Under the pieces are notes generated by a model that saw only the letters and a program-made list of their open reading frames with translations, was not told where the DNA came from and made no database searches. Below are positions 3,378 through 33,041 of a stretch of DNA of 33,041 nt, piece after piece. Location of the stretch: sequence record NC_049343.1; one strand, given 5' to 3'. How positions within the stretch are numbered: position 1 is the stretch's first letter; the number at the start of each line of letters is the position of its first letter. The position numbers and the translations under genes are program-made. The DNA is from Escherichia phage 500465-2.

Positions 3378-3530
3378 TGCTCCCCCTGAGTAATTACAGG
3401 AAGATTACCGCGCGCGAAACTGTTCTCCTTAACCCCCTGTTCTGGCCGTTTTCTTACAACAAAAGCCCTTTGTATCAACCTGTTACGCTTTGCCATCATG
3501 ACTGAAGAACCAGTCAGAGGGGCAAAAACT

Positions 3531-11259: not shown

Positions 11260-11860
11260 TTCACTGTTACCGCCATCAGCCAGCCGTTTCATGCGTTGCG
11301 CCGAAGCAGTCGGAGCGCGCATTACAGACATCCCGGTAGACCTCAACACGCTGTGGTCACCGGACACCTGCCCGGTGCATTTGCTGCCTTATCTCGCCTG
11401 GGCGTTTTCCGTTGACCGCTGGGATCGCAACTGGCCGGAAGAGACAAAGCGACAGGTGATTCGTGATGCATGGCTGATACACCGACACAAAGGGACCATC
11501 AGCGCACTGCGAAGAGCCGTGGAGCCTCTCGGCTACCTGATTGAAGTAAAGGAGTGGTGGCAACTCAACGAGGAGCCAGGAACATTTCGCATTGTTGTCG
11601 GAGTACTTGATCAGGGCATCACCGATGAAATGTATCAGGAACTTGAGCGCCTTATTGCGGATGCAAAACCAGTAAGTCGCCATCTGACGGGGCTGGCGAT
11701 CAGCCTGAGTGTGAACGGAAAGATTTTCGTTGGTACGGGATGCTATCACGGCGATGCCCTGACGGTTTATCCCTACACCCCGGAGTCCATTATTGTCGAA
11801 GGGGATTATTTCCCTGCCCCGGCCATTCATTTAATTGATAATCTGAGAGTAAACGCATGA
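11252..11860 (+). CDS. Baseplate/tail protein I (P2 gpI-like)
   Basis: ATG at 11252 overlaps the J stop; ends with overlap onto the H start (ATGA). Confidence 0.8.
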   Translation: MSNSLLPPSASRFMRCAEAVGARITDIPVDLNTLWSPDTCPVHLLPYLAWAFSVDRWDRNWPEETKRQVIRDAWLIHRHKGTISALRRAVEPLGYLIEVKEWWQLNEEPGTFRIVVGVLDQGITDEMYQELERLIADAKPVSRHLTGLAISLSVNGKIFVGTGCYHGDALTVYPYTPESIIVEGDYFPAPAIHLIDNLRVNA

Positions 11861-13362
11861 CAGTGAAATACTACGCCATTCTGACTAATCAGGGCGCGGC
11901 ACGACTGGCTAACGCGACGATGCTCGGCAGTAAGCTGAATCTGACGCAAATGGCCGTTGGTGATGCAAATGGTGTGTTACCAACACCAGACCCTGCACAA
12001 ACAAAACTGATTAACCAGAAACGCATTGCACCGCTGAATCTTCTGAGTGTTGACCCTAACAATCAGAGCCAGATTATTGCTGAGCAAATCATCCCTGAAA
12101 ACGAGGGAGGATTCTGGATCCGTGAGATTGGTCTTTATGATGATGAAGGTGTACTCATTGCGGTGGCAAACTGCCCGGAAACGTACAAACCGCAGTTGCA
12201 GGAAGGCAGTGGACGCACCCAGACTATCCGCATGATTCTGGTTGTCACGAACACCGAAGCCATCACGCTGAAAATCGACCCGTCGGTGGTACTGGCGACC
12301 CGTAAATACGTGGATGATAAAGTCCTGGAATTAAAGCTGTATGTGGATGACCAGATGAGAAACCACATTGCCGCACAGGATCCTCATACCCAGTATGCGC
12401 AGAAACATAATCCGACATTTACCGGAGAACCAAAAGCGCCGACGCCTGCCGCAGGAAATAACACCACGCGGATTGCGACCACTGAGTTTGTTCAGGCCGC
12501 TATTACCGATCTGATTAACGGTGCGCCAGCCACGCTGGACACACTGAAAGAAATTGCCGCAGCCATTAACAATGACCCGAAATTCAGCACCACCATTAAC
12601 AATGCGCTGGCACTGAAAGCGCCGCTATCGAGTCCGGCACTTACCGGAACGCCAACAGCACCTACTGCGGCACAGTCGGTCAACAATACACAGATTGCCA
12701 CCACAGCTTTTGTGAAATCAGCAATTGCGGCAATGGTGGGTTCTGCCCCTGCGGCACTGGATACACTGAATGAACTGGCGGCGGCGCTGGGGAATGACCC
12801 TAACTTTTCAACAACAGTGCTTAATGCACTGGCAGACAAACAACCGCTGGACAATACGCTGACTAATTTGAGTGGAAAGGATGTTGCTGGTCTTCTCGCA
12901 TACCTTGGTTTGGGAGAAGGTGCTCCAGCTATTGGCGTTCCGTTCTTCTGGCCCTCCGCGGCAATGCCAAATACTGTAATCGACAGCTGGTCCGGTATGG
13001 TGTTTTTGAAGTTCAACGGGGCGAAATTTTCTGCCTCTGATTACCCTGTGCTGGCGAAAGTGTTTCCTTCGCTGGTATTACCTGAAGCCCGCGGTGATTT
13101 CATTCGTATCTGGGATGACGGGCGAGGTGCAGACGGTGGTCGCGAATTATTAAGCTGGCAGGCAGCTACAAACTTTTCTCAGTTTGCCGGGAATATAGGC
13201 GAAGGTGCGGGACACGCAATTAACTTTCATGATGGCATCGCCGGAAATCAGCCAGGATTTTCACGATTTAATTTCACCAGTAACTCTGTGGGTGATGGTG
13301 TGAATTTTGTTGCTGTCAGACCGCGAAATATTGCATTTAACTTTCTGGTGAGGGCTAAATAA
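11857..13362 (+). CDS. Tail fibre protein H (constant N-terminal part plus currently expressed variable C-terminal part Sv)
   Basis: 501-aa ORF; two tandem ~53-aa repeats (T.IATT.FV...APA.LDTL.E.AAA..NDP.FSTT..NALA.K.P); a Gin-type crossover site lies inside the ORF at 12893-12918. Confidence 0.9.
   Translation: MTVKYYAILTNQGAARLANATMLGSKLNLTQMAVGDANGVLPTPDPAQTKLINQKRIAPLNLLSVDPNNQSQIIAEQIIPENEGGFWIREIGLYDDEGVLIAVANCPETYKPQLQEGSGRTQTIRMILVVTNTEAITLKIDPSVVLATRKYVDDKVLELKLYVDDQMRNHIAAQDPHTQYAQKHNPTFTGEPKAPTPAAGNNTTRIATTEFVQAAITDLINGAPATLDTLKEIAAAINNDPKFSTTINNALALKAPLSSPALTGTPTAPTAAQSVNNTQIATTAFVKSAIAAMVGSAPAALDTLNELAAALGNDPNFSTTVLNALADKQPLDNTLTNLSGKDVAGLLAYLGLGEGAPAIGVPFFWPSAAMPNTVIDSWSGMVFLKFNGAKFSASDYPVLAKVFPSLVLPEARGDFIRIWDDGRGADGGRELLSWQAATNFSQFAGNIGEGAGHAINFHDGIAGNQPGFSRFNFTSNSVGDGVNFVAVRPRNIAFNFLVRAK
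12893..12918. repeat. Gin/Cin/Pin-type recombination site (left), inside H
   Basis: ttctcgcataccttggtttgggagaa; matches the reverse complement of the right site at about 20 of 26 positions, core TTGGTTT.GGAGAA. Confidence 0.55.
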
Positions 13363-13955
13363 TGAAACCTGTTTTTGATGAAAATGGGCTGGCTACAGTG
13401 CCGGGCGATATGCGTTGTTTTTATTATGATGCTGAAACATCTGAGTATACGGGCTGGTCTGATGAATATATTAATACTGGCGTAAGTATGCCCGCCTGTT
13501 CCACTGGTATTGACCCTGGCGAAAACATTCCGGGAAGAGTGGCAGTATTTACAGGTAAGGGATGGAGCCATGAAGAAGACCATCGCAATGAGACTGTTTA
13601 CTCAATCGAAAATGGTGCTGCTGTTACAGTGGATTATATCGGTGCCATCAAAAACGGTTATGTCACGCTTTCACCGTTAACGCCATATGATAAATGGGAT
13701 GGTGAGAAATGGGTGACAGATACTAAGGCACAACACGGTGCCGCAGTAGAAGCGGCAGAAGCACAGCGCCAGTCACTGATTGATGCTGCAATGGCTTCCA
13801 TCAGCCTGATTCAGCTGAAATTACAGGCCGGGCGGAAGCTGACGCAGGCAGAAACCACCCGGCTTAACGCCGTGCTTGATTACATTGACGCGGTGACGGC
13901 AACAGATACGAGCACCGCGCCGGATGTCATCTGGCCTGAACTGCCGGAGGCGTAG
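13362..13955 (+). CDS. Tail fibre assembly protein (P2 gpG / Mu U-like)
   Basis: 197-aa ORF directly after H; C-terminal ...DTS.APDV.WP.LPEA signature shared with the minus-strand paralogue. Confidence 0.85.
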   Translation: MKPVFDENGLATVPGDMRCFYYDAETSEYTGWSDEYINTGVSMPACSTGIDPGENIPGRVAVFTGKGWSHEEDHRNETVYSIENGAAVTVDYIGAIKNGYVTLSPLTPYDKWDGEKWVTDTKAQHGAAVEAAEAQRQSLIDAAMASISLIQLKLQAGRKLTQAETTRLNAVLDYIDAVTATDTSTAPDVIWPELPEA

Positions 13956-14367
13956 GCCATTCAATATCTGGCGCACCGGAAGTATCGACCAGTTCCAGTG
14001 CGTCCAGATAATCCAGCCACAAATTATATTGCACCAGTTCCTCACCTTTCAGGCGACCAATCGCCGCTTTACCAGGCCATTGCTTACTGTTTATGTATTC
14101 GTTGACCTGATTAATCAATTGCTGCTTTTCCAGTTCGGCTGCGGCAATTTGTTCCTCATGAGTTGGCGGTGGAATATCAATCCATGCAGGCATTCCGTCG
14201 ATGACACCTCTGTATTTTCCTTCTGGTGCTTCCTTCATAAATTCGGCGGCAACAGTGTCGTCAATTTCGATTCCATCACCGGGCCATTCGCCGGATTCCT
14301 GATAAGCGATTTTAAGCTCCACAGGGAAAAACGCATTTTTATCGGCACTGAAAATATATTTCTGCAT
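13927..14367 (-). CDS. Alternative tail fibre assembly protein (U'-like), in the currently silent orientation
   Basis: 146-aa ORF on the opposite strand; C-terminus LVDTSGAPDIEWPTPPAVQAR parallels the gpG C-terminus. Confidence 0.8.
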   Translation of the reverse strand: MQKYIFSADKNAFFPVELKIAYQESGEWPGDGIEIDDTVAAEFMKEAPEGKYRGVIDGMPAWIDIPPPTHEEQIAAAELEKQQLINQVNEYINSKQWPGKAAIGRLKGEELVQYNLWLDYLDALELVDTSGAPDIEWPTPPAVQAR

Positions 14368-14369
14368 TT

Positions 14370-14725
14370 CTACCGTCCTATCGAAATATAACTGAATCTG
14401 TATTGCTGTGAGATATCACTGGTTGCCACACGCCACGCTGAATTACTGATATGTTCAAAATTTACAGACAAAACCTGCGGGGCAGGATTCGACGGGTCTG
14501 ACTGAACGGCATCAGACATAACACTGACTGAAATCATCGGCTGATTAGGGAATGGTATAGGGAAGTGTCCACTGATAAAGCGGGTCGTGTTTCCTGAAAA
14601 AGTGCCAAACTGAACAATATATCCACCTGGTAGCCTGAACCATCCCGAACCAGAAGCGAATGCTCCCATATCCGGTATCTGATTATCTCCTGTGCCCACA
14701 TCCCTTTTCGCCGCTTCTCCTAAAC
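14370..14725 (-). CDS. Alternative tail-fibre C-terminal variable segment (Sv'-like); promoterless exon fused to H only after inversion
   Basis: Minus-strand ORF 14370..14768 whose first codons lie beyond the right crossover site; shares the GLGE junction with H (H: LAYLGLGEGAPA; here: LNVGLGEAAKRD). Confidence 0.6.
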
Positions 14726-14740
14726 CAACGTTTAAGAAAA
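14715..14740. repeat. Gin/Cin/Pin-type recombination site (right), just upstream of the invertase gene
   Basis: ttctcctaaaccaacgtttaagaaaa; resembles gix/cix/hix consensus (TTCTC..AAACC..GGTTT..GA.AA) as recalled. Confidence 0.55.
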
Positions 14741-14795
14741 TGCAGAGGTAACAGCTAACTGGCATCATCCCCGGTTTTTATTCAGGGGGATGATC

Positions 14796-15383
14796 ATGCT
14801 TATTGGCTATGTTCGCGTATCAACAAATGACCAGAATACAGACCTGCAACGAAACGCTCTTGTTTGTGCAGGATGCGAACAAATATTTGAAGATAAATTA
14901 AGCGGGACAAAGACAGACCGACCGGGATTAAAACGCGCTTTAAAGCGCCTTCAAAAAGGCGACACGCTGGTTGTCTGGAAACTGGATCGCCTCGGGCGAA
15001 GCATGAAACATCTGATTTCTCTCGTCGGGGAACTACGGGAGCGAGGGATTAATTTTCGCAGTCTGACCGACAGCATAGATACATCTTCTCCAATGGGGCG
15101 TTTTTTCTTCCACGTGATGGGTGCCCTGGCTGAAATGGAACGTGAATTAATTGTTGAACGTACACTGGCCGGACTGGCTGCAGCGCGCGCACGAGGGCGC
15201 ACAGGCGGACGTCGCCCGAAGCTGACAAAAGAACAGCATGAGCAAATAGCAAGGCTGATCAAAAACGGGCACGACAGAAAACAACTGGCAATAATTTACG
15301 GCATTGGTATATCGACGATTTATCGTTACCACCCCGCAGGAGAATCAAGCGGAACAATTGAGAAGAGTCAGGAAACAAAATAA
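14796..15383 (+). CDS. Serine recombinase DNA invertase (Gin/Pin/Cin/Hin family)
   Basis: MLIGYVRVSTNDQNTDLQRNALVCAGCEQIFEDKLSG...GDTLVVWKLDRLGRSMKHLISLVGELRERGINFRSLTDSIDTSSPMGRFFFHVMGALAEMERELI is near-identical to Gin/Pin as recalled; catalytic-Ser N-terminal domain and C-terminal HTH. Confidence 0.92.
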   Translation: MLIGYVRVSTNDQNTDLQRNALVCAGCEQIFEDKLSGTKTDRPGLKRALKRLQKGDTLVVWKLDRLGRSMKHLISLVGELRERGINFRSLTDSIDTSSPMGRFFFHVMGALAEMERELIVERTLAGLAAARARGRTGGRRPKLTKEQHEQIARLIKNGHDRKQLAIIYGIGISTIYRYHPAGESSGTIEKSQETK

Positions 15384-15410
15384 CCGCTAATCTGGTCATT
15401 AGCGGTTTTT
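15384..15410 (+). terminator. Rho-independent terminator-like hairpin after the invertase gene
   Basis: accgctaat-ctggtc-attagcggt followed by ttttt. Confidence 0.5.
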
Positions 15411-15418
15411 GTGTTAAA

Positions 15419-15913
15419 TCAGAACAGCCCTTTAACTGAACTGACCGCGCTGTTAAGAGATGATGTCACTTTATCTTTGAAGCCGGACAGCATATCGCTG
15501 AACGATGAGGATTGCAGGCGCTCCCGCAAATCCTCATCACAGCGTTCAAGGGTCAGTGAAAATTCTATCTTTTTCGCCTTACCGTAGCGATCAAACTCGG
15601 AACGGGTCGTATTCGTTCCGGTCAGGACATACATGCCGTAAATCTGCCCGACGCCATCAATCAAAGGCCAGGGTCGTCCTGTATACGCCTGCGTGGTCAG
15701 CAGCGACAGCGACACTTCGCCACCTGTAATTTCAGGATAAAGCACACCAGAAAGAACGATGCGATCATCACCTGCACCGATATACTGCCAGCTTGCTGAA
15801 CGGTTAACGCGTTCATTTTTCACATGCCGCCAGCTTTTGTTTTGCTGTAACTGCTGATGCGGCAGCGTGCGCAGCTCAAAAACAAACATGCCGTAGATCA
15901 TCATCATGGCCAT
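15419..15913 (-). CDS. Tail protein U (P2 gpU-like)
   Basis: N-terminus MMMIYGMFVFELRTLPHQQLQQNKSWRHV...WQYIGAGDDRIVLSGVLYP matches the P2 gpU N-terminus as recalled. Confidence 0.85.
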   Translation of the reverse strand: MAMMMIYGMFVFELRTLPHQQLQQNKSWRHVKNERVNRSASWQYIGAGDDRIVLSGVLYPEITGGEVSLSLLTTQAYTGRPWPLIDGVGQIYGMYVLTGTNTTRSEFDRYGKAKKIEFSLTLERCDEDLRERLQSSSFSDMLSGFKDKVTSSLNSAVSSVKGLF

Positions 15914-15919
15914 GACTCC

Positions 15920-18763
15920 TCAATCTTTATCGTAAAAACTGCCACGCCCGGCACGGGCGCGCCGTTCCATTTCTGCCCTGACCATTTCACCGACCAGTTT
16001 CGCCAGTTCGCGGGGATTCTGCGTAACAACGTTATGCAGATGAACATGAATTTCACCACCAAATCCGGAGGCAACAGGCTCCCGGTTACGGGAAGTTACA
16101 GGAACTGATGCCACTGGAGATCGTATAGCCTCCGCCACCGGGCGGGAGCTGGCCGCAACAACAGGGACCAGCGCCGGAGGCAGCGGAGCCGAGACCACGG
16201 GTGTGATATTAATTGCGGGGGCAGGCTTACTGACCTGCGCAATCTTCCGCTCCTGCCACTCCCCACGAACAGCAAGTGCTCGGGGCAGGTTCTTAAAGAC
16301 AATATCGCCGGGGCCAATGCGTTTTTTCGTCTCCTCAACCAGCTTACCTGTGTTATCAGCAATTTTGCTGAGTCTGCGCAGCGTACCGGTATTGCTGTCT
16401 GTGAGCGGTTTATTGTCTTTGGGGTTATCACCTCCGGTGCCATTGCCATTTTCCACAGGCTTCGGCGGATTGATTTTCGCCAGGTCCCCCTGAAGCAAGG
16501 CAACCTTGTCCTGAAGAATGGCCTCACGCTGTGCGTCTTCGATTTTCTTGCGCGCCCTTTCCGCTTCATCCGGAAGGACGCCAAGTTTTTCAAGTATCCA
16601 CGCCAGCGTATCCAGTAGCATTTTTGCAGGTGTCAAAACAAGTTGTAACGCACCGCCAAGAACGTTACCGAATATCTCGCCAGCACTGGTACATTTATCC
16701 AGCGTTTCCTTGCTGGACTCCATCGGTGACAACAGCGATTTAAACCAGTTAAACACCTGGCTGATCCCGCTTCCGATTGCGTCAAAAACAGGACCAAACC
16801 GTTCAAAGGTTTCGCGCAACGGGGTCAGCCTTTCCATAATCCCGCTGAACACCCCGGCAAAAAATGCCCTGATGGGATCCCAGTATTTCCAGATGAGAAC
16901 GGCAGCTCCGGCAAGCGCAGCCACGATAAGACCGACCGGACTGAACAACGCCCCGATAGCGCCCCCCAGTAACGAAACGGAACCCGTCACCATTCCCCAT
17001 AGTGCTGGCAGGAGTCTGACAGCATTCATTGAACCGGTCAGGAGGGAAAAGCCAAGACGCAGTTTTGCCAGCGGGCCAGCAAGCACACCAATAGCCAGCG
17101 ACAACGAGCCAACCGTTGCAGTCATTGCCAGCAACGCACCGCCTGCTATCAGTAGCTGGCGCGTCAGTACCGGATGGGCCTGCGCCAGCGAGGTGATTTT
17201 TTCAAGCACCCGCGTGAGCCACTGCGTGACAGAACGCAGCGGACCGTCAACCAGATCACTGATGCGAATACGAAGACCTTCCCATGCGCTGTCGAGATTT
17301 TTCAGGTCCCCATCAAGATTATCGGCCATTACTTTTGCAACGCGATCGGCCTCTCCCCTTGCCCCCTGCAATTCTCTGGTCAGTTTTTGCAGCTCTCCTG
17401 AACCAGCCGCCGCAACAAGCGTCTGCAAACCAACGAACGCCTCTTCTCCGGCGATGTCCTTGAAGAAGGAGACCTGGTCCACCTGTCCGTATTTTTGTGT
17501 CGCCTTATAGAGATCAAGCAGCACATCCTCCATCGGGCGCATTTTGCCTCTGGCGTCAGCAACTGACACCCCCAGCTCTTTCAGCGCATCAGCCGCAGCT
17601 TTTGGCGGTGATGCAAGGCGGGACAGACTTGCGCGCATGGCTGTACCAGCATCGCTTCCACGAAGACCATTATTGGCAAGCATCCCGGCCATGGCTGCCG
17701 CTTCTTCAAGACTGATACCAAGTTTTGCGGCAACCGGACCGGTATACTTCATGGTTTCGCCCAGCGCGCGTAAATCAGTATTGGTCCGGGTGAATGCTGC
17801 TGTCAGCGTATCGCCAACACGGTCCATTTGATCGGCTGTCAGGTTGAATTGTGTGAGGATATTGGAGCCTATATCAGCCGTCTCGCCGAGTTCGACGCCA
17901 CCTGCCAGCGCCATATTAAGAACACCGGGCAATGCGGCCTGAATGGCCTGCGGAGTAAAACCAGCCATTGCCAGAAAGCTCTGCCCACTGGCGGCATCAC
18001 TCGCAGTAAACTGTGTTTCAGAGCCAAGTTTTAACGCCTGCTCACGCAGCGCCTTAAACTGCGGGCTGTTTTTGTCGATTCGCGTCAGTGCCTGAACGCG
18101 GGACATCTCTTTCCCGAACCCGATCGCAGGCTGCAAAAAACGCCCGGCAGCATAGCCGCCAGCCGCTGCCGCACCAATTGCCAGCGCACCACCTGTTTTC
18201 AGTTTTCCCGCAGTTTCCTGCGCGCGCGAATACCGCTCACGCGCCCGCGTTACACGCGCAAGCGCCTGCCGTTCGCGTTCAAGCTGGTTGTTGTACTGTT
18301 CGGTGCGTCTGATGGCCTGCTGGATGGTGTTATCGCTGCCTGTCAGGGAAATGCCGTGGCGTTTCAGCTCTCCGCCAAGCTCCCGCATTTTCTGAATTTC
18401 ACGTGTGCGCGATTCATTCAGGTGTTCAAGCCGGGTGCTTAACTGCTGCATCAGCTTTTGTTGTTTTTCGCTGAGCACTGTACCCGTGCGTTGTAACTGA
18501 TTAAGGGCGTTAAGCTGGCGTCGTGCTTTCAATATGCCAGCATCCGCTTTACTGACAGCGTCGCGGGCGCGCTCAAATGATCGCGCCTGACGCTCGAGAT
18601 TTTTGATCGCCCCCTGCGTTCGCTGGATGGAGTCACCAAACTGCCCCATCAGGCGGCGGGCGTTTTCGGCAGGCCGGGTCAGCCTGTCAACGGCGCTGAA
18701 AGCGACCCGGATATCAAGAGTCTTCATTGTCTGCATTCCCGCTGCGAAGTGCCGCCCGCTCAC
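15920..18763 (-). CDS. Tail tape measure protein (P2 gpT-like)
   Basis: 947-aa ORF, helical/Ala-Gly-rich with hydrophobic central segments; located between E/E' and U. True start may be an internal ATG (MQTMKTLD). Confidence 0.9.
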   Translation of the reverse strand: MSGRHFAAGMQTMKTLDIRVAFSAVDRLTRPAENARRLMGQFGDSIQRTQGAIKNLERQARSFERARDAVSKADAGILKARRQLNALNQLQRTGTVLSEKQQKLMQQLSTRLEHLNESRTREIQKMRELGGELKRHGISLTGSDNTIQQAIRRTEQYNNQLERERQALARVTRARERYSRAQETAGKLKTGGALAIGAAAAGGYAAGRFLQPAIGFGKEMSRVQALTRIDKNSPQFKALREQALKLGSETQFTASDAASGQSFLAMAGFTPQAIQAALPGVLNMALAGGVELGETADIGSNILTQFNLTADQMDRVGDTLTAAFTRTNTDLRALGETMKYTGPVAAKLGISLEEAAAMAGMLANNGLRGSDAGTAMRASLSRLASPPKAAADALKELGVSVADARGKMRPMEDVLLDLYKATQKYGQVDQVSFFKDIAGEEAFVGLQTLVAAAGSGELQKLTRELQGARGEADRVAKVMADNLDGDLKNLDSAWEGLRIRISDLVDGPLRSVTQWLTRVLEKITSLAQAHPVLTRQLLIAGGALLAMTATVGSLSLAIGVLAGPLAKLRLGFSLLTGSMNAVRLLPALWGMVTGSVSLLGGAIGALFSPVGLIVAALAGAAVLIWKYWDPIRAFFAGVFSGIMERLTPLRETFERFGPVFDAIGSGISQVFNWFKSLLSPMESSKETLDKCTSAGEIFGNVLGGALQLVLTPAKMLLDTLAWILEKLGVLPDEAERARKKIEDAQREAILQDKVALLQGDLAKINPPKPVENGNGTGGDNPKDNKPLTDSNTGTLRRLSKIADNTGKLVEETKKRIGPGDIVFKNLPRALAVRGEWQERKIAQVSKPAPAINITPVVSAPLPPALVPVVAASSRPVAEAIRSPVASVPVTSRNREPVASGFGGEIHVHLHNVVTQNPRELAKLVGEMVRAEMERRARAGRGSFYDKD

Positions 18764-18950
18764 GCCAGCTAACCACTTCGCCGGGCGTCATCATGAAGAT
18801 TTCGGCGGGCGACCAGTTAAAAATAACGGCAATATCTGCCACAAAGTCTTCTATGTGCTCAAAGCACACAACCGTGATCAGGCTTCCGTCGCCTGTTCGT
18901 TCTTCCCGCCAGAGTCCGCACCGCTCAAAAAATTTACGGCAACCACACAT
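18714..18950 (-). CDS. Tail assembly chaperone E' frame (expressed as E+E' fusion by -1 frameshift)
   Basis: -1 frame ORF overlapping the 3' end of E; slippery heptamer at 18926-18932. Confidence 0.65.
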   Translation of the reverse strand: MCGCRKFFERCGLWREERTGDGSLITVVCFEHIEDFVADIAVIFNWSPAEIFMMTPGEVVSWRERAALRSGNADNEDS

Positions 18951-19243
18951 AACTGAATAAAGTCACGGGATGCCATTTTTTTGATCGTCACTTCATCCAG
19001 TCGCGGTGATGTCACGCGTGACAGCAGCGTAAACATGGATTCCGCTTTCAGATTCAGCACATCAGACAGCGACAAATCTCGCAGAGATCCAGCCTGCTCA
19101 ATAGCCCCGGTGATCTCCACATACGTGATTTTTTCGCCGCCTCGCTCAATTGGTTGGGTAAGTTTTACGCCACGCTCACTGGTTTCTTTCACAGTGTCAG
19201 TAACTACCGTGTTTTCGGTATCGATGTTTTTCGTCTCTTTCAT
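18878..19243 (-). CDS. Tail assembly chaperone E (P2 gpE-like)
   Basis: 121-aa acidic ORF between the tail tube gene and the tape measure gene. Confidence 0.8.
   Translation of the reverse strand: MKETKNIDTENTVVTDTVKETSERGVKLTQPIERGGEKITYVEITGAIEQAGSLRDLSLSDVLNLKAESMFTLLSRVTSPRLDEVTIKKMASRDFIQLCVVAVNFLSGADSGGKNEQATEA
18926..18932 (-). other. Programmed -1 ribosomal frameshift slippery site T_TTT_TTG
   Basis: Minus-strand reading gta aat ttt ttg agc (E frame) versus cgt aaa ttt ttt gag (E' frame); same heptamer as the P2 E/E+E' site as recalled. Confidence 0.65.
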
Positions 19244-19297
19244 CAGGAAACTCCTTTCAGTCAGAGGCGACGCACTGCGCCGCCTGCATATTACTTA

Positions 19298-19810
19298 TCA
19301 GCCAAGCCCAAGCGCGGAACGGATGCGATCGGACACAATGTCCTTGCCGTCCTTCCGGTAAATGAAGTTCAGCAGGTCAATCTCCCACAACGGGCGATCG
19401 TTAACACTCAGCTTGTAGTAGGTGTTTTTAATGGCGTAAGTGTGTGATGTGGCTTCGCCCTGTTTGGCTTCCCCCATATCAATTTCCGTCACACGTCCGC
19501 GCATTTCGACTTCATACAGGTCGCTTTCTGCATCGGTGTAGTATTCACCCGCAAAACGCAGCAGCGTGCCGTCAATCGTGCCGCCATACTTAAGGAACAG
19601 CGCACGAACTGCGCCCCCCATGACAAAGCTCGCATCAAGCGCAGAGTCGTCCAGACCGAGATCAATACTTACCGCCCCCATCATGCCACCACCCCGGTAG
19701 CTGTCGGTTTTGCGCGTCAGTTTGGGCAGAGTGACGGACGTCACCTTACCCACTTCGTTTTCACCATCCACAAACAGCGTAAAAAAGCGAAGATGTTTTG
19801 GCACAGCCAT
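19298..19810 (-). CDS. Tail tube protein (P2 gpFII-like)
   Basis: 170-aa ORF directly downstream of the sheath gene on the same strand. Confidence 0.9.
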   Translation of the reverse strand: MAVPKHLRFFTLFVDGENEVGKVTSVTLPKLTRKTDSYRGGGMMGAVSIDLGLDDSALDASFVMGGAVRALFLKYGGTIDGTLLRFAGEYYTDAESDLYEVEMRGRVTEIDMGEAKQGEATSHTYAIKNTYYKLSVNDRPLWEIDLLNFIYRKDGKDIVSDRIRSALGLG

Positions 19811-20994
19811 CAGGCACCTCCCAGAACCGCAAATGCGGGTTCAAAGTATTCATCAGTAAACGTCTGGTAAAGCTCCATGTCTTCCAGTGGCGGAACGGGC
19901 GTATATTTGTAGCGAATACGCACACGCCCCTGACGTAAATCCGTGGTGCTGTTATCCACCACGTCATACCAGCACTCCGCGCCAATCAGTTTCCCGGCAG
20001 TAACCAGTGAATCCAGTTTTGCCCTGATGGCACTGATAACATCCTTCACGTTCGCAGGCGTCAGTGGACTGTCGATGGTTTCAAACTGCGCTTCCGCAAT
20101 TGAATCAGCCAGCACCTGTGCGGTTCGGGTATACACCTCAAAGATGTAGGCGTTCGTTTCCGGTGTGCGGTTGCCCCAGAAGCGGAACCCGTTGCGACGA
20201 ATAATGGTCGTGATTTCTTTGTTGTTGAGGCTGTTGGCATCACTGTCTTCGGCCTGTAACGACCAGAACACATGCCTCGACATCCCCAGCACATTTTTAA
20301 CCGGAACGTTGGACAGTGATTTGTGCCATCCCTGCTCATGGTCAATGTACGCACGAAGGCCGCACGCATAGGCAGGCGCGGGGAACGTTTCGTTTTTGCC
20401 ACTTTTCGGGTTGTAGGCGATGAAGTCCGGCCATAAGAGCATCACCTCACGTTCGTTGAATTTCTGGCGGTAGGTAATCGCCTCAGCCATCGTGTTACAG
20501 CCGTGACATGAGGCATACACAAACGCGCGCAGTTTACCTGCAATCACGCACAGGGATTTTGTTACAGCCTCCGTGTCCAGCTCCGGCGCGGCCAGAATAC
20601 GCGGACGGTATCCGATGCTTTCATCCTGCTCTGCAACAAGCAGCGCATACATCCCCGTATAGCTGCCGTCATCCTCAGAACCACCGATAACCAGTTGATC
20701 CTGCGTCTTTCCGTCTTCTTCTTTGTGTTCAGCCACGCGAACGACGATCACCTTTGTGCTCACCTGGTCTGCGATGGCCTTAAGCGCACGATAAAGCGTC
20801 CCCGTTGTCCCGCATTTTCCCAGCACGTCATTGACGCGGGTCAGCAGTGTGGGCTTGTTCAGCGGGAACAGCTTCGCGTCCGCATCATCCGCCGTTGCCA
20901 CGATACCGATAACGCTGGAATCAACATCGTTAATCGCTGTTACCAGGTCGGTATTTTCCGTAACACGGGCACCATGAAAACGAGTTTCACTCAT
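19810..20994 (-). CDS. Tail sheath protein (P2 gpFI-like)
   Basis: 394-aa ORF; blocks FPLNKP, QAIADQ, CQKLRAF-like, DQEQGWHK.LSNV, LIRR.GFRFWGNRT, NYTRTAQV, YTPVPPLE match P2 FI as recalled. Confidence 0.92.
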   Translation of the reverse strand: MSETRFHGARVTENTDLVTAINDVDSSVIGIVATADDADAKLFPLNKPTLLTRVNDVLGKCGTTGTLYRALKAIADQVSTKVIVVRVAEHKEEDGKTQDQLVIGGSEDDGSYTGMYALLVAEQDESIGYRPRILAAPELDTEAVTKSLCVIAGKLRAFVYASCHGCNTMAEAITYRQKFNEREVMLLWPDFIAYNPKSGKNETFPAPAYACGLRAYIDHEQGWHKSLSNVPVKNVLGMSRHVFWSLQAEDSDANSLNNKEITTIIRRNGFRFWGNRTPETNAYIFEVYTRTAQVLADSIAEAQFETIDSPLTPANVKDVISAIRAKLDSLVTAGKLIGAECWYDVVDNSTTDLRQGRVRIRYKYTPVPPLEDMELYQTFTDEYFEPAFAVLGGA

Positions 20995-21151
20995 AGCTTC
21001 AGCCCCTTGTATCCGTTAAATGATTCGGCAACAATCATCACCCACCACGCGCGTAATCTCACCCCTGCGCCATTCTCCCGCCACGGCGACAACAAAAAGC
21101 AGTAACCCCCTCCGCACGCACATGCGACCATGCCACACAGGGAGGGAGCAG

Positions 21152-22261
21152 ATGACCGACACCACCATGCAATTGCTCAGTCAGGGCACAGACCCCGTGA
21201 AAATGCCGGATTTTGATATTCTCGCCGAGGGTAAAACGCTGTCCGGCGTGGCAGAACGCCTGATGAGCCTGTCACTGACCGACAACCGGGGATTTGAGGC
21301 GGACCAGCTCACCATCACGCTGGATGATGCCGATGGCCAGTTGCAGCTACCGCCACGGGGCGCGCGTCTGACGGTTCTCATTGGCTGGAAAGGGGAACCG
21401 CTGACAGAAAAAGGCACTTACATTGTTGATGAAATCGCTCACGAAGGACCGCCGGACAGGCTGACTGTTTCAGCCAGAAGCGCAGATTTTCGGGATGAAT
21501 TTAATGTTAAACGTGAGGCGTCCTGGCATGATGTGACCGTTGAACGTGTGGTATCCGCCATCGCTCATCGGTACGGCCTGAAACCGCAAATCAGCGAAAT
21601 GCTGATGGATATCGAAATCGACCACGCCGACCAGACTGAAGAAAGCGACATGTCCTTCCTTACGCGCATGGCGGAAATGCTGGGCGCAATCACCACGGTA
21701 AAAAGCGGTAATCTGTTATTCATCATGCCCGGCGGTGGCGTAAACGCACAGGGCCAGCCGTTGCCATCGTTCGCCATCACACGCAGCAGCGGCGATCGCC
21801 ATCAGTTCCGCATTGCTGACCGCGAGGCGTATACGGGGGTACGCGCTTACTGGCTTGATCTTAATTACGGGAAAAAGAAAAAAGTCAGCGTGAAACGCCG
21901 CAAACCGCCAAAACCCAAAAAGGAGAAAAGCAGCAGCCGTGAAGGTGATTATATGGAAGGCGCGGAAGGCAATGTGTTTGTGTTACGCAAGACTTATCAG
22001 AACGAGCAGGCAGCAAGACGCGCAGCGGCGGCAAAGTGGCAGCAGCTACAACGCGGAGCCGCATCGTTTTCCATCACGCTGGTGCGTGGACGTGCAGAAC
22101 TCTACCCCGAAATGCATGGCACGGTAACAGGATTTAAAAGCGAGATTGATAATCAGGACTGGATTATTGCGAAAGCCGAGCACACCATTGATAACAGCGG
22201 CTTTACCACACAGCTTGAGCTTGAGGCAAAAATCCCGGAATGGATAGCAGAAACAGAGTGA
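21152..22261 (+). CDS. Tail protein D (late control gene D-like)
   Basis: ORF 21020..22261; likely start ATG 21152 behind GGGAGGGAG; C-terminal part resembles gpD. Stands alone on + strand, divergent from FI. Confidence 0.8.
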   Translation: MTDTTMQLLSQGTDPVKMPDFDILAEGKTLSGVAERLMSLSLTDNRGFEADQLTITLDDADGQLQLPPRGARLTVLIGWKGEPLTEKGTYIVDEIAHEGPPDRLTVSARSADFRDEFNVKREASWHDVTVERVVSAIAHRYGLKPQISEMLMDIEIDHADQTEESDMSFLTRMAEMLGAITTVKSGNLLFIMPGGGVNAQGQPLPSFAITRSSGDRHQFRIADREAYTGVRAYWLDLNYGKKKKVSVKRRKPPKPKKEKSSSREGDYMEGAEGNVFVLRKTYQNEQAARRAAAAKWQQLQRGAASFSITLVRGRAELYPEMHGTVTGFKSEIDNQDWIIAKAEHTIDNSGFTTQLELEAKIPEWIAETE

Positions 22262-22381
22262 GCAACTTAGACATATTAGCTCAAACTTAAACTGGCAAGT
22301 TTACAGTATAGAATTAAACATAAACGACGGTCCGCTCCGTGTCAGAAGCGGACTTTGTCATCCCTATGTAAGGTTGATTGC

Positions 22382-23404
22382 TTAATACGCATTTAATTTA
22401 AATTTGTATTTGCCTTCTATGTAATGGATAAATTCAATTATGCTTTTTTCTATCGCATCTAATATATGAATATATCCATCCCGATTTAAGGTCCTATCCA
22501 ACTCAAAGTGATGAACTATCCCATGTCTATATTGTATGATTTCAGAAATTCGATTCTCAAGAAAATCAACTGATTTTCCAATTCTTTTTTTCTTATAAAG
22601 AATCGCTCTCACATCTATATCCAGCCACTCTTTATATGCTTTGTTTAGGTGGGTTAAGTTTTGAAAAGTGTAATTTCTTGCAATAACACTTTCTATTGAA
22701 ATATTTCCTTTCTCTATCTCAAGCAGAATATCAAAATCAACTTTTTGCTTATACGATGTTCTTTTTGCTATTGCGAAAGGATCGTACTTTATAAGTATTT
22801 GAAAAGCTCTAGAGAAAAAGTATTCAAACATAGCAACCGCAAAAGGTACTAATCCATTATATATAACTCTACTGGGATCCATACATTGCATGTAATCAAA
22901 GTATTCGGATAAGCCGCCATCTTCCGGTAGGTTTAATTTAATAGAAGGTTCAGGTAAGGCATGTTTAACAGCGGAAATCTCATGATGGACATGATTAAAT
23001 ATTGAAGAAATGCCACGACTGATCGGACTACTAGAATCCTTCCATAGAGGAGCGTACCTATTTTTCCCATAATCACCTATAAGTGTTCCACCAAAAAGAC
23101 TCCTTGCGCCTTTTAGAACATCATTAAGCATTTTTACATCATGCCAACTAGCGCTATATAAATTACGCACATGCAATGCCCATTTATTACCAGATATGTG
23201 TAATTCGTCATTTGAAACAGGATATATATCAGCCGAAACTCCATCTGTAGATTTGAAGTCCGTATCATCAAACCAAGAGTAATTCAACGTTCCTTGGGGC
23301 CATTCCCACAAATGTTTACACCTTTTAAAACCTAAATTTTCAAGGTAATTTTTAAGTTCGTTTCTAGTTGCTTTTTTAGGGTACAGCGTTATATCTCTTC
23401 CCAT
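22382..23404 (-). CDS. Hypothetical protein, AT-rich cargo gene between D and ogr; C-terminal HEPN-like Rx4H motif (candidate abortive-infection/defence protein)
   Basis: 340-aa ORF in a visibly AT-rich block; no resemblance to P2 structural or regulatory proteins that I recognise; motif IIQYRHGIVHHFELDRT near C-terminus. Confidence 0.7.
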   Translation of the reverse strand: MGRDITLYPKKATRNELKNYLENLGFKRCKHLWEWPQGTLNYSWFDDTDFKSTDGVSADIYPVSNDELHISGNKWALHVRNLYSASWHDVKMLNDVLKGARSLFGGTLIGDYGKNRYAPLWKDSSSPISRGISSIFNHVHHEISAVKHALPEPSIKLNLPEDGGLSEYFDYMQCMDPSRVIYNGLVPFAVAMFEYFFSRAFQILIKYDPFAIAKRTSYKQKVDFDILLEIEKGNISIESVIARNYTFQNLTHLNKAYKEWLDIDVRAILYKKKRIGKSVDFLENRISEIIQYRHGIVHHFELDRTLNRDGYIHILDAIEKSIIEFIHYIEGKYKFKLNAY

Positions 23405-23595
23405 GCTTTATTCACCTGATATACAATATTTTAAATTTTAACTATTATGAACGTATGAATTTTCACATTGGATGTATGGAAGTTCAACAACTATTGAAAG
23501 TTCAATTTTCACTCTTCGCACAGAGCGAGCTGTTAGTTGGAATTAGGGATCGTACAATCTAGAATAGCGGCAACACCACGTTAAGGGAGGTCGCT

Positions 23596-23856
23596 ATGTT
23601 CCGTTGTCCGCTTTGTGGCGCATCTGCCCGTATCCGCACAAGTCGTCCGGAAAATGATTCAAACACCGTGCGGCAAAAGTATTACCAGTGTAACAATCTG
23701 GAATGCGGCGTATGCTTCTCAACACTGGAAGCTTTCCATAAATTCACATCGAAACACGCCTCCGGCGTTCACTCTTCAGAAGGTATCCCGTGGCATGAGC
23801 TACCAGCTTCACACAGGGGAAACAATCAGATGAGTTTGCCTTTACCTCAGAATTAA
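23596..23856 (+). CDS. ogr: Ogr/Delta-family zinc-finger late transcription activator
   Basis: MFRCPLCGASARIRTSR...YYQCNNLECGVCFSTLEAF: CxxC...CxxxxC zinc-finger pattern as in P2 Ogr (MFHCPLCQHAAHARTSR...YHQCQNVNCSATF as recalled). Confidence 0.88.
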   Translation: MFRCPLCGASARIRTSRPENDSNTVRQKYYQCNNLECGVCFSTLEAFHKFTSKHASGVHSSEGIPWHELPASHRGNNQMSLPLPQN

Positions 23857-23900: not shown

Positions 23901-24252
23901 GGGTGCCTTTCGGCTGATGGTCGGAGGGAATACCCGAAGGCCAGATGTGGAAAGGCCCCGGAAAACACTTTTGTTTAACCGAGGCCCTAACCGTCTACCC
24001 TAAGCAAGTGAAAGGTTAGCGCCTCTCCGGAAAAGGAGCAAGTGCTATGTCGCAAAAATCGCTTACAGCCATCACGTTCTGCGTGACGGTAATCCTCATC
24101 ATCTGGATGTTGCACGGTTCGCTGTGCGAAATACGGATGAGTTTCTGGGGAGCGGAGTTTGCGGCGTTCTTACAGTGTAAGCAGTAAGGAAACCGCGACG
24201 GGGGAGTAATCCCCCGTCAATCGGTTGCCAGGGTAAGGTCGATAAGGCACCC
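23901..24252 (+). promoter_or_regulatory. hok mRNA-like regulatory envelope: 5' element gggtgcctt (23901-23909) exactly complementary to 3' element aaggcaccc (24244-24252); 3' hairpin 24195-24218
   Basis: Long-range 9-nt perfect complement flanking the toxin ORF, as in the tac/fbi fold-back pairing of hok mRNAs. The antisense sok-like RNA and its promoter were not located. Confidence 0.5.
24047..24187 (+). CDS. hok: Hok/Gef-family type I toxin (46 aa, below the ORF-track cutoff)
   Basis: MSQKSLTAITFCVTVILIIWMLHGSLCEIRMSFWGAEFAAFLQCKQ: N-terminal TM helix, conserved SLCEIR and E.AAF motifs as in HokA-E; RBS AAAGGAG upstream. Confidence 0.8.
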   Translation: MSQKSLTAITFCVTVILIIWMLHGSLCEIRMSFWGAEFAAFLQCKQ

Positions 24253-24385
24253 TATCTCACGGCTCTAAATGCAAAAATTCCATGAAACTGTGGGATTTTT
24301 GCATCACTACTGATACAGATCTGCCCTTCTATATGTCTCACTCTATACCAGCTAATCAATTGACACTTATCAATAAAAAAAAATC

Positions 24386-24394
24386 TGATAAAAT
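24386..24394 (+). promoter_or_regulatory. Extended -10 promoter element (TGaTAAAAT) upstream of the zinc-ribbon gene; TTGACA hexamer at 24360-24365 is too far for canonical spacing
   Basis: Seen in sequence; about 55 bp upstream of ATG 24449. Confidence 0.35.
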
Positions 24395-24448
24395 CAAAAT
24401 GTTTTGTAACAAATATCAACTCGTATTGATCCAAAGGAGGCGGATTAC

Positions 24449-24781
24449 ATGGCATTAATCAAATGTCCTGAATGCCAGAAAGAGGTGAGCGATTCAGCAT
24501 TGTATTGCCCTGCTTGCGGTAAACAAATAAAAAAACTTAAGCGTTCATTTTTTGGAAAGCTCATTAAGTGGATATTTATATTATTTAATATTTTTATGAT
24601 CTATACGCTTTTAGTTGGACTGGGAGGCACTAGTGAAATAATAAATAATGCTACATCCGATGCCGAAAAAGCCGGTGCAGTTATTGGTACAGGCTTAGGT
24701 TTAATTACCATTGGAAGTTTATGGGTTATTGGCGATATCATTATCGGAATTTTAGTATTTCTTACTAAACCAAAAGGATAA
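24449..24781 (+). CDS. Zinc-ribbon membrane protein (N-terminal CPEC...CPAC ribbon, two predicted TM helices)
   Basis: 110-aa ORF with strong RBS (AAAGGAGG); MALIKCPECQKEVSDSALYCPACGKQ followed by hydrophobic helices; AT-rich. Confidence 0.7.
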   Translation: MALIKCPECQKEVSDSALYCPACGKQIKKLKRSFFGKLIKWIFILFNIFMIYTLLVGLGGTSEIINNATSDAEKAGAVIGTGLGLITIGSLWVIGDIIIGILVFLTKPKG

Positions 24782-24785
24782 CAAA

Positions 24786-25679
24786 ATGAAAAATATAATT
24801 TTTTCTATAGGTGCATCATTTATATCAATTAGTGTACTGCCTGTTCACGCAGCAACTGAACATAATAACTTCAATGCAGTACTCCAGTGCCGAGCAATAG
24901 AAAATAATAAAGACAGACTTTCTTGTTACGATAAGTCAATACAACCGACTCGAACGAAAGTTGCTGAAAAATTCGAAAGCAGAGATCAATGCCCTGATGA
25001 GAAAGATGATGACAGACGTTTATCTTGTTATGATCGTTTTTTTTCTCCAACATTTACTCCATCTGTAAACTCAAAATCTAAAACGGAAAAGCCAGTAACA
25101 ACAGAGGCTCAGCAACCAAATCTTTCTGAGATATCTAAATGCCGAGCAGAAAATGATAAAGAAGCCAGACTAAACTGCTACGATAAACTATTCCCACAGG
25201 ATAAAGCTGTTCAAGCTGAATCAAAATTAGAGAAAGCCACAGATGTAGGAAAATGGCACACATCCATTACTACATCGCCAATTGATGATTCGAAAAATGT
25301 AATTTTATCGTTAGAAAGTGATGATTATATCAGAACTCCATTTGGAGAAGCGGTTACTCCCACTCTGTTTATAGCTTGCCGAGAAAAGAAAACCGAAGTA
25401 TTTCTTAGTTGGGATGTATATTTAGGCCTTGAACAAACCAGCATGCTTTATCGTCTTGATAAACAGAAAGCAGTTGAGCGAAACTGGCTAGTATCTACAG
25501 ATACAAAGGCTGTTTTTTATAAAGGTAATGACATTGATTTCATCCGAAAACTAGCCAACTCAAACAAAATGTATACAAAAATAACTCCTTATAATGAGAG
25601 CCCTGTAAGTGCAACTTTCAATTTAAACGGCCTGTCAAACGCGCTAAAACCACTTCAAGCTGCTTGTAACTGGAAATAG
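24786..25679 (+). CDS. Secreted protein of unknown function with three Cys-containing repeats (C...RLSCYD) and a C-terminal domain with a Cys pair
   Basis: 297-aa ORF 4 bp after the zinc-ribbon gene; signal peptide MKNIIFSIGASFISISVLPVHAA; repeats QCRAIENNKDRLSCYDK / QCPDEKDDDRRLSCYDRF / KCRAENDKEARLNCYDKL. Confidence 0.7.
   Translation: MKNIIFSIGASFISISVLPVHAATEHNNFNAVLQCRAIENNKDRLSCYDKSIQPTRTKVAEKFESRDQCPDEKDDDRRLSCYDRFFSPTFTPSVNSKSKTEKPVTTEAQQPNLSEISKCRAENDKEARLNCYDKLFPQDKAVQAESKLEKATDVGKWHTSITTSPIDDSKNVILSLESDDYIRTPFGEAVTPTLFIACREKKTEVFLSWDVYLGLEQTSMLYRLDKQKAVERNWLVSTDTKAVFYKGNDIDFIRKLANSNKMYTKITPYNESPVSATFNLNGLSNALKPLQAACNWK

Positions 25680-31801: not shown

Positions 31802-33041
<1,240 letters not shown>

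Follow-up and report, generated by a model that had tools for sequence, protein, structure and literature searches.

An anciently fixed inversion of the FI-to-U tail gene block in the P88-type branch of P2-like phages

Tail gene order in P2-like phages and in the 500465-2 prophage

The genome annotation of phage P2 places G-FI-FII-E-T-U-D in one direction, as the initial annotation of the DNA studied here had stated, and P2 and Fels-2 alike possess a single co-directional seven-gene operon in which the stop codon of U overlaps the start of D. Both also have a -1 frameshift between E and E′, an Ogr-type activator and a dyad activator site about 80-88 nt ahead of the start codon of FI, and Fels-2 carries in addition an invertase gene just before FI. 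In P2, a shared-site design is found only for P/Q vs. O, where one site lies between the two divergent late promoters PP and PO, its centre 55-56 nt from each of the annotated starts (3016 and 3127, 111 nt apart). A different system is known from the G segment of Mu, the C segment of P1 and Fels-2, in which a serine invertase stands beside a segment of ~1.8 kb that carries alternative H C-termini together with G genes and has an inverted crossover site at either end; such Gin/Hin/Cin-type segments occur naturally in both orientations.

The window analysed here, 33,041 nucleotides of Escherichia phage 500465-2 (NC_049343.1), is a prophage of the P88-like type, belonging to genus Xuanwuvirus of the family Peduoviridae. 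Across the structural genes it is colinear with P88, the type phage, at 96.1% identity in a stretch of 11.5 kb and 95.0% in one of 7.5 kb, these being the identity and colinearity by which membership of the genus was assessed, and with the exception of I and the tail fibre its proteins are 93-100% identical to those of P88. From the portal to D/ogr the window has the same genes, in the same order and on the same strands, as P88, P884B11, Shae_phiSM, PhiR44_2 and Chuche, at 93-96% nucleotide identity, including the convergent invertase-U and the divergent FI-D junctions; the stretch running from the invertase-U to the FI-D junction matches each of the five in a single colinear piece (93-95% identity), and the annotated strands of P88 and its relatives agree with those of the window. 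The window differs from the other Xuanwuvirus members in its tail-fibre C-terminal cassettes, and from P88 in having a cargo gene between D and ogr.

Gene calls and Pfam matches (Table 1) confirm the orientation that had been described from the sequence: H, G and the invertase occupy the plus strand, U-T-E/E′-FII-FI (15419-20994) the minus strand, and D the plus strand again. As had been claimed, this is the order that flipping the FI-to-U block would produce, and it equals that of Fels-2 with the block reversed, since Fels-2 has the P2 order and an invertase just before FI. No co-directional run of all seven genes ending with D exists in the window; unlike in P2 and Fels-2, D is preceded by a spacer and has a 5′ region of its own. 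It is indeed divergent from FI, but it does not stand alone on the plus strand as first proposed, the co-directional ogr gene lying downstream.

A homologue of every gene of the P2 and Fels-2 operon can be recognised, FI, FII, E/E′, T, U and D all being represented, with 31-53% identity in tblastn to P2 and Fels-2. Positions 18926-18932 form a slippery heptamer, T TTT TTG (T6G), which is in the zero frame of E and in the correct -1 register into E′, and the two frames are probably joined at this T-rich heptamer by a programmed -1 frameshift as in P2. The open reading frame of T extends to 18763, the start assigned by PGAP in the identical prophage of strain 503025 being 18727, and in the same strain the counterpart of the H′ cassette is annotated by PGAP as a partial tail protein. 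The N-terminus of H is 52-67% identical to that of P2 and Fels-2 H, and the invertase 73% identical to that of Fels-2. GGGAGGGAG precedes the ATG of D. At the left border of the block, the predicted bidirectional hairpin would block read-through from G or the invertase. In most relatives D is directly followed by ogr; a PADLOC scan of the three cargo proteins of the window gave no match. Neither R nor V is preceded by a genuine intergenic gap in which a further late promoter could lie.

Table 1. Features of the tail region and of the FI-D spacer, in window coordinates
Feature	Position	Strand	Evidence or remark
Tail fibre gene H	11857-13362	+	PF12571, E 7.6e-63; constant N-terminal part and variable C-terminus now expressed
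Tail fibre assembly gene G (copy now expressed)	13362-13955	+	PF02413
G′, alternative tail fibre assembly gene	13927-14367	-	PF02413, E 2.8e-33; silent in present orientation
Alternative H′ C-terminal cassette	14370-14768	-	PF21882; silent in present orientation
Serine DNA invertase, Gin/Hin/Cin type	14790-15383	+	PF00239 and PF02796
Bidirectional intrinsic-terminator hairpin (predicted), convergent invertase/U junction, left border	15382-15407	both	10-bp stem, T-run on each side; also an inverted repeat
Tail gene U	15419-15913	-	PF06995, E 1.5e-38
Tape measure gene T	15920-18763	-	PF10145
E′ frame	18714-18869	-	PF06528, E 1.7e-12
Tail assembly chaperone gene E	18878-19243	-	6e-9 in tblastn against P2 E; PF10109 matched weakly, E 0.0054
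Tail tube gene FII	19298-19810	-	PF04985, E 6e-47
Tail sheath gene FI	19810-20994	-	PF04984, PF22671, PF17482
Divergent FI-D spacer, 157 bp	20995-21151	.	Putative late promoter region acting both ways (PF to the left, PD to the right)
Predicted -10-like hexamer GATGAT of PF	21034-21039	-	44-49 nt from dyad centre; predicted start ~21027; nAnnAT columns conserved
Candidate Ogr-type activator dyad TCT-N12-ACA	21074-21091	.	Centre 88 nt from FI ATG, 69 nt from D ATG
Predicted -10-like hexamer GACCAT of PD	21126-21131	+	44-49 nt from dyad centre; predicted start ~21138
Baseplate hub / late control gene D	21152-22261	+	PF05954; 96% identical to P88 D
Low-GC cargo gene between D and ogr	22382-23404	-	
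ogr/delta-type zinc-finger late activator gene	23596-23856	+	PF04606, E 5e-14; ogr/Delta-like in strain 503025 annotation

Distribution of the inverted order and the substrate of the invertase

Of 5426 complete E. coli genomes, 1356, about one quarter, carry the FI-D junction, counted at a coverage of at least 80%, and 622 carry the invertase-U junction. Any FI-D match at all was obtained in 1386 genomes, the 30 without an intact junction being partial, and six independent complete genomes reproduce both junctions with 100% identity. Apart from these 30 partial matches, a single orientation of the FI-U block was seen in every genome examined. We further surveyed 80 D-containing loci from species-representative genomes; over the whole comparison, the relatives covered were those of Enterobacterales together with phiCTX and HP1. 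Wherever D is at least 61% identical to that of the window, FI is divergent from D (29 of 29 loci); among the remaining 51 loci FI was found in 38, always on the same strand as D and in the P2 order, and was undetectable in 13. All P2-, Fels-2- and phiCTX-like relatives tested are co-directional, and the co-direction of seven genes is a feature of P2, Fels-2 and phiCTX, not of the whole family.

A lineage-specific arrangement was among the explanations initially offered, and this one has held, the order being shared by the five Xuanwuvirus phages named above, by SEN5 and Klebsiella 3LV2017, and by 29 Enterobacterales prophage loci. SEN5 (Senquatrovirus, Salmonella) and 3LV2017 (Reginaelenavirus) have a D that is 63-70% identical to that of the window and show the same inverted U-T-E-FII-FI divergent from D, although they belong to other genera, possess other tail-fibre genes and have no invertase, indicating that the FI-U inversion is older than the invertase and independent of it. 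In simple neighbor-joining trees, built separately for D and FI with phiCTX as the root and without bootstrap support, the inverted type forms one clade each, with no P2-type member inside, and a single old inversion is therefore the simplest account. Divergence from P2 and Fels-2 is even over the head, baseplate, FI-U and D genes, at 32-54% amino acid identity: the FI-U block shows 32-48% (FI 46-48%, FII 42-47%, U 46%) and D 48-53%, with N at 42% and J at 50-54% outside the block. In the literature we found no paper on the FI-U inversion; those on P88 and PhiSM are silent on the orientation, and those on Burkholderia P2-like phages and on xenorhabdicin had no bearing on it. P88 is inducible and lytic (PMC5285337), and PhiSM forms plaques and has lysogenised K-12 (PMC6456863).

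The invertase does have a real substrate in the window, which is the invertible H/G segment (12904-14729, ~1.83 kb) with inverted crossover sites at 12904-12919 and 14714-14729. In the prophage of strain 503025, otherwise 99.9% identical, this segment lies in the opposite orientation, and the difference between such near-identical prophages implies that the enzyme is active in the lineage. The two sites were recovered by genome comparison and a pattern search, having been missed by a repeat search with a 9-nt seed because of their mismatches, and the pattern search returned only these two, none being located at the FI-U borders. Between the borders themselves (15384-15418 and 20995-21151), the repeat search found only chance-level pairs, 71-77% complementary and in coding sequence, which agrees with the absence of convincing inverted repeats noted earlier by eye. 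The FI-U block thus has neither crossover sites at its borders nor both orientations among close relatives, 1356 of the 1386 matching E. coli genomes and all phage relatives sharing the one FI-D junction, and an invertase next to U is undetectable in 26 of the 29 inverted-type loci. A system of the Gin/Hin/Cin type accounts for the H/G segment but not for the 5.6-kb FI-U block, in which the invertase is not involved.

The FI-D spacer as a predicted two-way late promoter

It had been pointed out that with this gene order the FI-D spacer would have to hold both the F promoter and a D promoter, and a search for Ogr-type sites was proposed. The spacer does not contain the perfect TGT-N12-ACA motif but carries TCT-N12-ACA, which deviates from it by one base, and exactly one perfect motif occurs in the spacers of 24 of 29 relatives, with its centre 74-85 nt from the FI ATG. 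The candidate dyad of the window is recognised only by comparison with these relatives, and its distance from FI agrees with the 79-89 nt of P2-type phages. Over the whole window, the strict motif has four matches, all of which are within genes and below chance expectation, and the relaxed TTST-N12-ACAA also has four against 2.6 expected, of which only the two in divergent spacers are meaningful. A gapped 13-base motif, TTCT-N12-ACAACAAAA, is restricted to the FI-D spacer and the P-O spacer (3440-3464). An Ogr-type activator gene and a candidate dyad upstream of FI, as seen in the P2 module, are both present. A generic sigma-70 scan, whose counts over the window were at chance level, found no promoter in 20995-21151; a lack of matches there is expected for activator-dependent promoters and gives no positive evidence for them.

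The four predicted promoters PF, PD, PP and PO have -10-like hexamers 43-50 nt from the dyad centre, those in the FI-D spacer being weak (3-4 of 6 matches to TATAAT). This spacing agrees with the P2 annotation, where the start points are 55-58 nt from the centre of the site. The predicted starts of PF and PD would be ~111 nt apart as are those of PP and PO in P2, which are annotated whereas those of the window are predicted. On the PD side, a 'Gc.A..AT' block preceded by a CGCGCG-rich stretch is conserved across the clade, and this flank is similar to the one on the PO side in the same phage (ACAACAAAAGC ... GC-A--AT). The dyad flanks in the inverted clade reach 0.71 and 0.63 bit per column, figures inflated by loci that are partly close kin, while in P2-type phages the FI side alone is conserved and the FI-distal flank is not (0.17 bit per column). 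Such conservation supports the idea of two promoters in the spacer, and with a single dyad and core elements equidistant on both sides, we infer that PF and PD form a shared-site bidirectional late promoter like PP/PO of P2.

Origin of the arrangement and its meaning

We consider the best explanation, with a probability of roughly 0.85, to be one ancestral FI-U inversion that included PF and was inherited without involvement of the invertase, PF and PD probably sharing a dyad. Comparison suggests that in the common ancestor of a large P2-like clade, including at least Xuanwuvirus, Senquatrovirus and Reginaelenavirus, FI-FII-E/E′-T-U would have been inverted once, carrying along its own PF, and that the inverted order has been passed on since. 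As read from the sequence, FI to U would be transcribed leftward from PF, ending at the bidirectional terminator facing the invertase gene, and rightward transcription of D, with ogr downstream, would begin at PD, a new late promoter, both promoters most likely using a single dyad with its centre ~55 nt upstream of each predicted start. The odds lean slightly toward the further proposal that, once the inversion had brought D to the upstream side of PF, the PF site became a second bidirectional promoter through a -10 element at the mirror position, recreating the PP/PO design independently and placing D-ogr under direct positive feedback by Ogr. Since the Ogr-type site is a dyad, one new -10 would be enough to attain this, and the inverted clade would then possess a second copy of the design, FI-U vs. 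D-ogr, that P2 has only once.

That the FI-U block was simply mis-oriented in the assembly of the source genome, a possibility raised at the outset, has a negligible chance of being true: the ~17 single-base homopolymer indels separating the window from an otherwise identical prophage do mean that its sequence quality is imperfect, but the junctions recur without a mismatch in the six complete genomes, the FI-D junction is found in 1356 of the E. coli genomes, and separately sequenced phage genomes contain it as well. Scarcely more credible is a recent or ongoing inversion by the adjoining serine invertase acting at secondary sites, by which D would have been cut off and the prophage possibly crippled. 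An active-looking invertase gene does adjoin the block and the enzyme is at work in the lineage, as the H/G segment attests, yet crossover-like sites and significant flanking inverted repeats are both lacking at the FI-U borders, relatives with no detectable invertase near U (SEN5 and 3LV2017 besides the 26 loci) have the same order, genera that share just 55-75% protein identity are all fixed for it, the junction is intact in 1356 of 1386 matching E. coli genomes, and phages with the inverted order such as P88 and PhiSM are viable, so that the suggestion of a compromised D has to be abandoned.

Replacement of the module, in which an FI-U cassette from another contractile-tail lineage was acquired in reverse, would be in keeping with the mosaic nature of phage genomes, and a block apparently equipped with a promoter and a terminator of its own could be transferred in one piece. 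We nevertheless find it improbable, given that identity to P2 and Fels-2 is equal inside and outside the block, that the FI and D trees agree on a monophyletic inverted clade, and that the distance from the PF dyad to FI is that of P2-type phages. A greater, though still doubtful, likelihood attaches to an ancestral arrangement in which expression of D does not depend on the shared dyad. D would then either have an independent promoter, constitutive or dependent on another factor, or be expressed only weakly, and the conserved sequence on the D side would have some other purpose. The predicted -10 of PD (GACCAT) is weak, the window dyad has one degenerate half-site, and few copies of D are needed per virion, so weak expression could suffice. 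Against this, the D-side flank is conserved solely in the inverted clade, its hexamer lies at the mirror distance of 44-49 nt as for PF, PP and PO, and the D side is similar to the PO side in this phage, all of which favor the sharing of one dyad by PF and PD. Half-site changes are found as TCT-N12-ACA at both divergent spacers of P88-like phages and as TCT-N12-AGA in Providencia prophages, and if PF/PD did become a second bidirectional promoter in the way proposed above, they would reflect co-evolution of activator and site.

The inverted block is the normal, anciently fixed order of the P88-type branch; it reflects neither damage nor an artefact, and the invertase did not produce it. P2 is accordingly not representative of every P2-like phage: FI-U divergent from D is the norm in this clade, which is carried by about one quarter of complete E. 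coli genomes and by many other Enterobacterales, and such an orientation should not be taken as a sign of damage, of misassembly or of an active invertase. The splitting of the F operon has apparently been accommodated by two-way use of a palindromic Ogr site, providing an example of how activator-dependent operons may tolerate rearrangement, and the conserved elements of the spacer offer a hypothesis that can be used in engineering P88-like phages or tailocins.

Gene order and its occurrence

By ORF listing and Pfam scans, the genes FI, FII, E, E', T and U run leftward between the serine invertase and D, and a slippery heptamer, T TTT TTG, at 18926-18932 in the right -1 register offers a route from E to E'. 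In P2 the order FI-FII-E-E'-T-U-D forms a single co-directional operon driven by PF, the late promoter on the FI side (GenBank annotation), and Fels-2 keeps this order with an invertase directly ahead of FI; the initial annotation therefore described the window accurately as what flipping FI to U would produce. Its further remark that D stands alone on the plus strand is right as to the separation of D from the block, but an ogr-type gene trails D co-directionally.

Late genes of the window around the FI-U block
Gene	Coordinates	Strand	Remark
H	11857-13362	+	
G	13362-13955	+	
G'	13927-14367	-	silent alternative
H' C-terminal cassette	14370-14768	-	silent alternative
Serine invertase	14790-15383	+	
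U	15419-15913	-	
T	15920-18763	-	
E'	18714-18869	-	
E	18878-19243	-	
FII	19298-19810	-	
FI	19810-20994	-	
D	21152-22261	+	
ogr-type gene	23596-23856	+	PF04606

A query of 10 kb around the block matched Escherichia phage P88, Xuanwuvirus P884B11, Citrobacter phage Shae_phiSM, PhiR44_2 and Chuche. In every one of these phages the match is a single colinear alignment that spans the invertase through the whole of D (92-95% identity), and the annotated strands agree with the window. Of 5426 complete E. coli genomes searched with junction probes, 1356 contain the FI-D junction (1-kb probe, at least 80% coverage) and 622 the invertase-U junction; both probes matched at 100% in six ETEC genomes, strains B7A and 503025 among them. 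With this junction in so many complete genomes and in separate phage genomes, the assembly artefact that had been considered is rejected, and the alternative of a lineage-specific arrangement proved right, the same orientation being present in P88, P884B11, Shae_phiSM, PhiR44_2, Chuche, SEN5 and 3LV2017. Nor is D crippled by the inverted arrangement, as had been feared, since P88 is an inducible, lytic phage (PMC5285337) and PhiSM is spontaneously released, forms plaques and has lysogenised K-12 (PMC6456863).

The window also carries about 17 single-base indels relative to the otherwise identical 503025 prophage and flank, mostly in short homopolymer runs (898-3697, 7073, 31242 and 31302). These split the portal (Q), large terminase (P) and scaffold (O) frames into several ORFs and shorten mnmC, and they look like sequencing error in the source assembly, not true pseudogenes.

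Origin of the inverted orientation

Scanning one genome per bacterial species with a D protein alignment gave 80 loci, in each of which FI, FII, T, U, D, ogr, J and I were placed by tblastn. Wherever D was at least 61% identical to that of the window (29 of 29 loci), FI lay on the opposite strand directly upstream of D, with J and I farther upstream and co-directional with D. The hosts are Salmonella, Kluyvera, Kosakonia, Enterobacter, Klebsiella, Citrobacter, Hafnia, Yersinia, Pectobacterium, Rouxiella, Dryocola, Xenorhabdus, Photorhabdus, Providencia and Morganella, together with a record labelled Vagococcus whose D is 98% identical to the window's. Near-identical enterobacterial P2-like loci occur in assemblies labelled Vagococcus sp. 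(NZ_JBQPOM010000071, locus L007), a Gram-positive genus, and Chryseobacterium sp. (L081), where contamination or mislabelling is likely. Among the other 51 loci (D at most 53% identical), FI was found in 38, always on the strand of D and in P2 order, and was undetected by tblastn in 13. The distant phiCTX is co-directional, and HP1, whose gene order differs, is yet wholly co-directional.

Neighbour-joining trees were built for D and for FI with phiCTX as the root; in each, all inverted-type sequences form a single clade with no P2-type sequence inside. Amino-acid identity to P2/Fels-2 is about equal inside the block (FI 46-48%, FII 42-47%, U 46%) and outside (N 42%, J 50-54%, D 48-53%), which argues against import of a foreign cassette. 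An inversion helped by the adjacent invertase had also been suggested. The 16-nt crossover motif, however, occurs in the window only at 12904-12919 and 14714-14729, in inverted orientation, and a repeat search at the block borders found no meaningful inverted repeats, bearing out the initial inspection by eye. Thus the invertase is an ordinary tail-fibre switch with no bearing on block orientation, and invertase-driven inversion is discarded. The segment between these motifs (12904-14729, 1.83 kb) is itself inverted relative to the 99.9% identical 503025 prophage, so that the two prophages express different H C-termini and G chaperones. Furthermore, an invertase adjoins U in only 3 of the 29 inverted loci, and no invertase accompanies the inverted block in two isolated phages, SEN5 (Senquatrovirus) and Klebsiella phage 3LV2017 (Reginaelenavirus). 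Judged from these comparisons, the simplest reading is a single old inversion in the ancestor of the clade.

A predicted bidirectional promoter between FI and D

At the left border of the block, a hairpin at 15382-15407 (10-bp stem, T-runs on both strands) is, from its sequence, a predicted bidirectional terminator for the invertase and the FI-U transcript, which would leave D out of reach of read-through. On the earlier expectation, the spacer between FI and D would have to hold two promoters. A search for Ogr-type sites found no strict TGT-N12-ACA match in the window's spacer (20995-21151), but the variant TCT-N12-ACA is present at 21074-21091. Spacers from 29 related loci place it at the homologous position: 24 of 29 have a single perfect TGT-N12-ACA whose centre lies 74-85 nt from the start codon of FI. 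The distance is alike in P2-type loci (79-89 nt; P2 82, Fels-2 81), which suggests that PF travelled with the block. In its extended form, TTCT-N12-ACAACAAAA, the motif has exactly two copies in the window, one in the FI-D spacer and one in the P-O divergent spacer (3440-3464). In the P88-like group both divergent spacers carry the hybrid TCT-N12-ACA, and two Providencia loci (L016, L025) have in the FI-D spacer a perfect TCT-N12-AGA dyad (GTTCTC...GAGAAC) instead of TGT-N12-ACA; such variants may mean that activator and site vary together.

When spacers were aligned on this dyad, a conserved nAnnAT hexamer was seen on the FI side and a conserved TTGTCT...CGCGCG...GC-A--AT block on the D side, each with its hexamer ending 49 nt away from the centre of the dyad. 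Conservation extends to both flanks in the inverted clade (0.63 and 0.71 bit per column, from loci that are not independent), whereas in the P2-type control the FI-proximal flank is conserved (0.57) and the distal flank is not (0.17), a pattern supporting the earlier expectation of two promoters. All four predicted window promoters, PP, PO, PF and PD (on the P, O, FI and D sides), have a weak -10-like hexamer at a distance of 43-50 nt from the centre of a dyad. The predicted starts, about 21027 leftward and 21138 rightward, are 111 nt apart; the annotated PP and PO starts of P2 (3016, 3127) are likewise separated by 111 nt around one activator site annotated for both. Based on the dyad, its two-sided conservation and the hexamer geometry, we propose that the FI-D spacer would act as a second PP/PO-like bidirectional late promoter.

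Neighbouring genes, public records and significance

Between D and ogr is inserted a gene of low GC (34-38%) at 22382-23404 (-), absent from P88, which has no match to 22272-23559. Its 340-aa product gave a below-threshold HEPN_RiboL-PSP match (E 1.2e-4) and no PADLOC match, and may be defence or abortive-infection cargo. Beyond ogr, and before the host gene flk, comes further cargo (~24047-25679), shared with Shae_phiSM: a hok/gef toxin gene (503025 annotation), a zinc-ribbon protein (24449-24781) and a TagO/VasI-like protein (24786-25679, PF11319). From 25946 onward come the host genes flk, yfcJ, fabB and mnmC, with an IS621 transposase gene (IS110 family; 31956-32936, -) beside mnmC, as annotated in the identical 503025 region.

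Several records need care. In 503025 (NZ_CP025892, 20809-21662) PGAP reduces D to a 267-aa truncated VgrG/Pvc8 protein and a pseudo-ORF, although the full 369-aa frame is open; in P88 (NC_026014, 22178-22309) a 43-aa hypothetical ORF is annotated over the predicted promoter. The Shae_phiSM record (OR565851) labels the sheath 'late control gene D' and D 'ogr'. PhiSM was described in 2019 as a siphovirus with a long non-contractile tail (PMC6456863), and its genome record, which matches the window, is listed under Peduoviridae and encodes a sheath, tube and baseplate of P2 type; published morphology and genome record do not fit.

The window prophage belongs to Xuanwuvirus, the genus of P88-like phages. 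A literature search found no paper commenting on the block orientation, which annotated public genomes from three ICTV genera have shown for years and which is not new in kind; the sole modestly new element would be the putative PF/PD promoter sharing one dyad.
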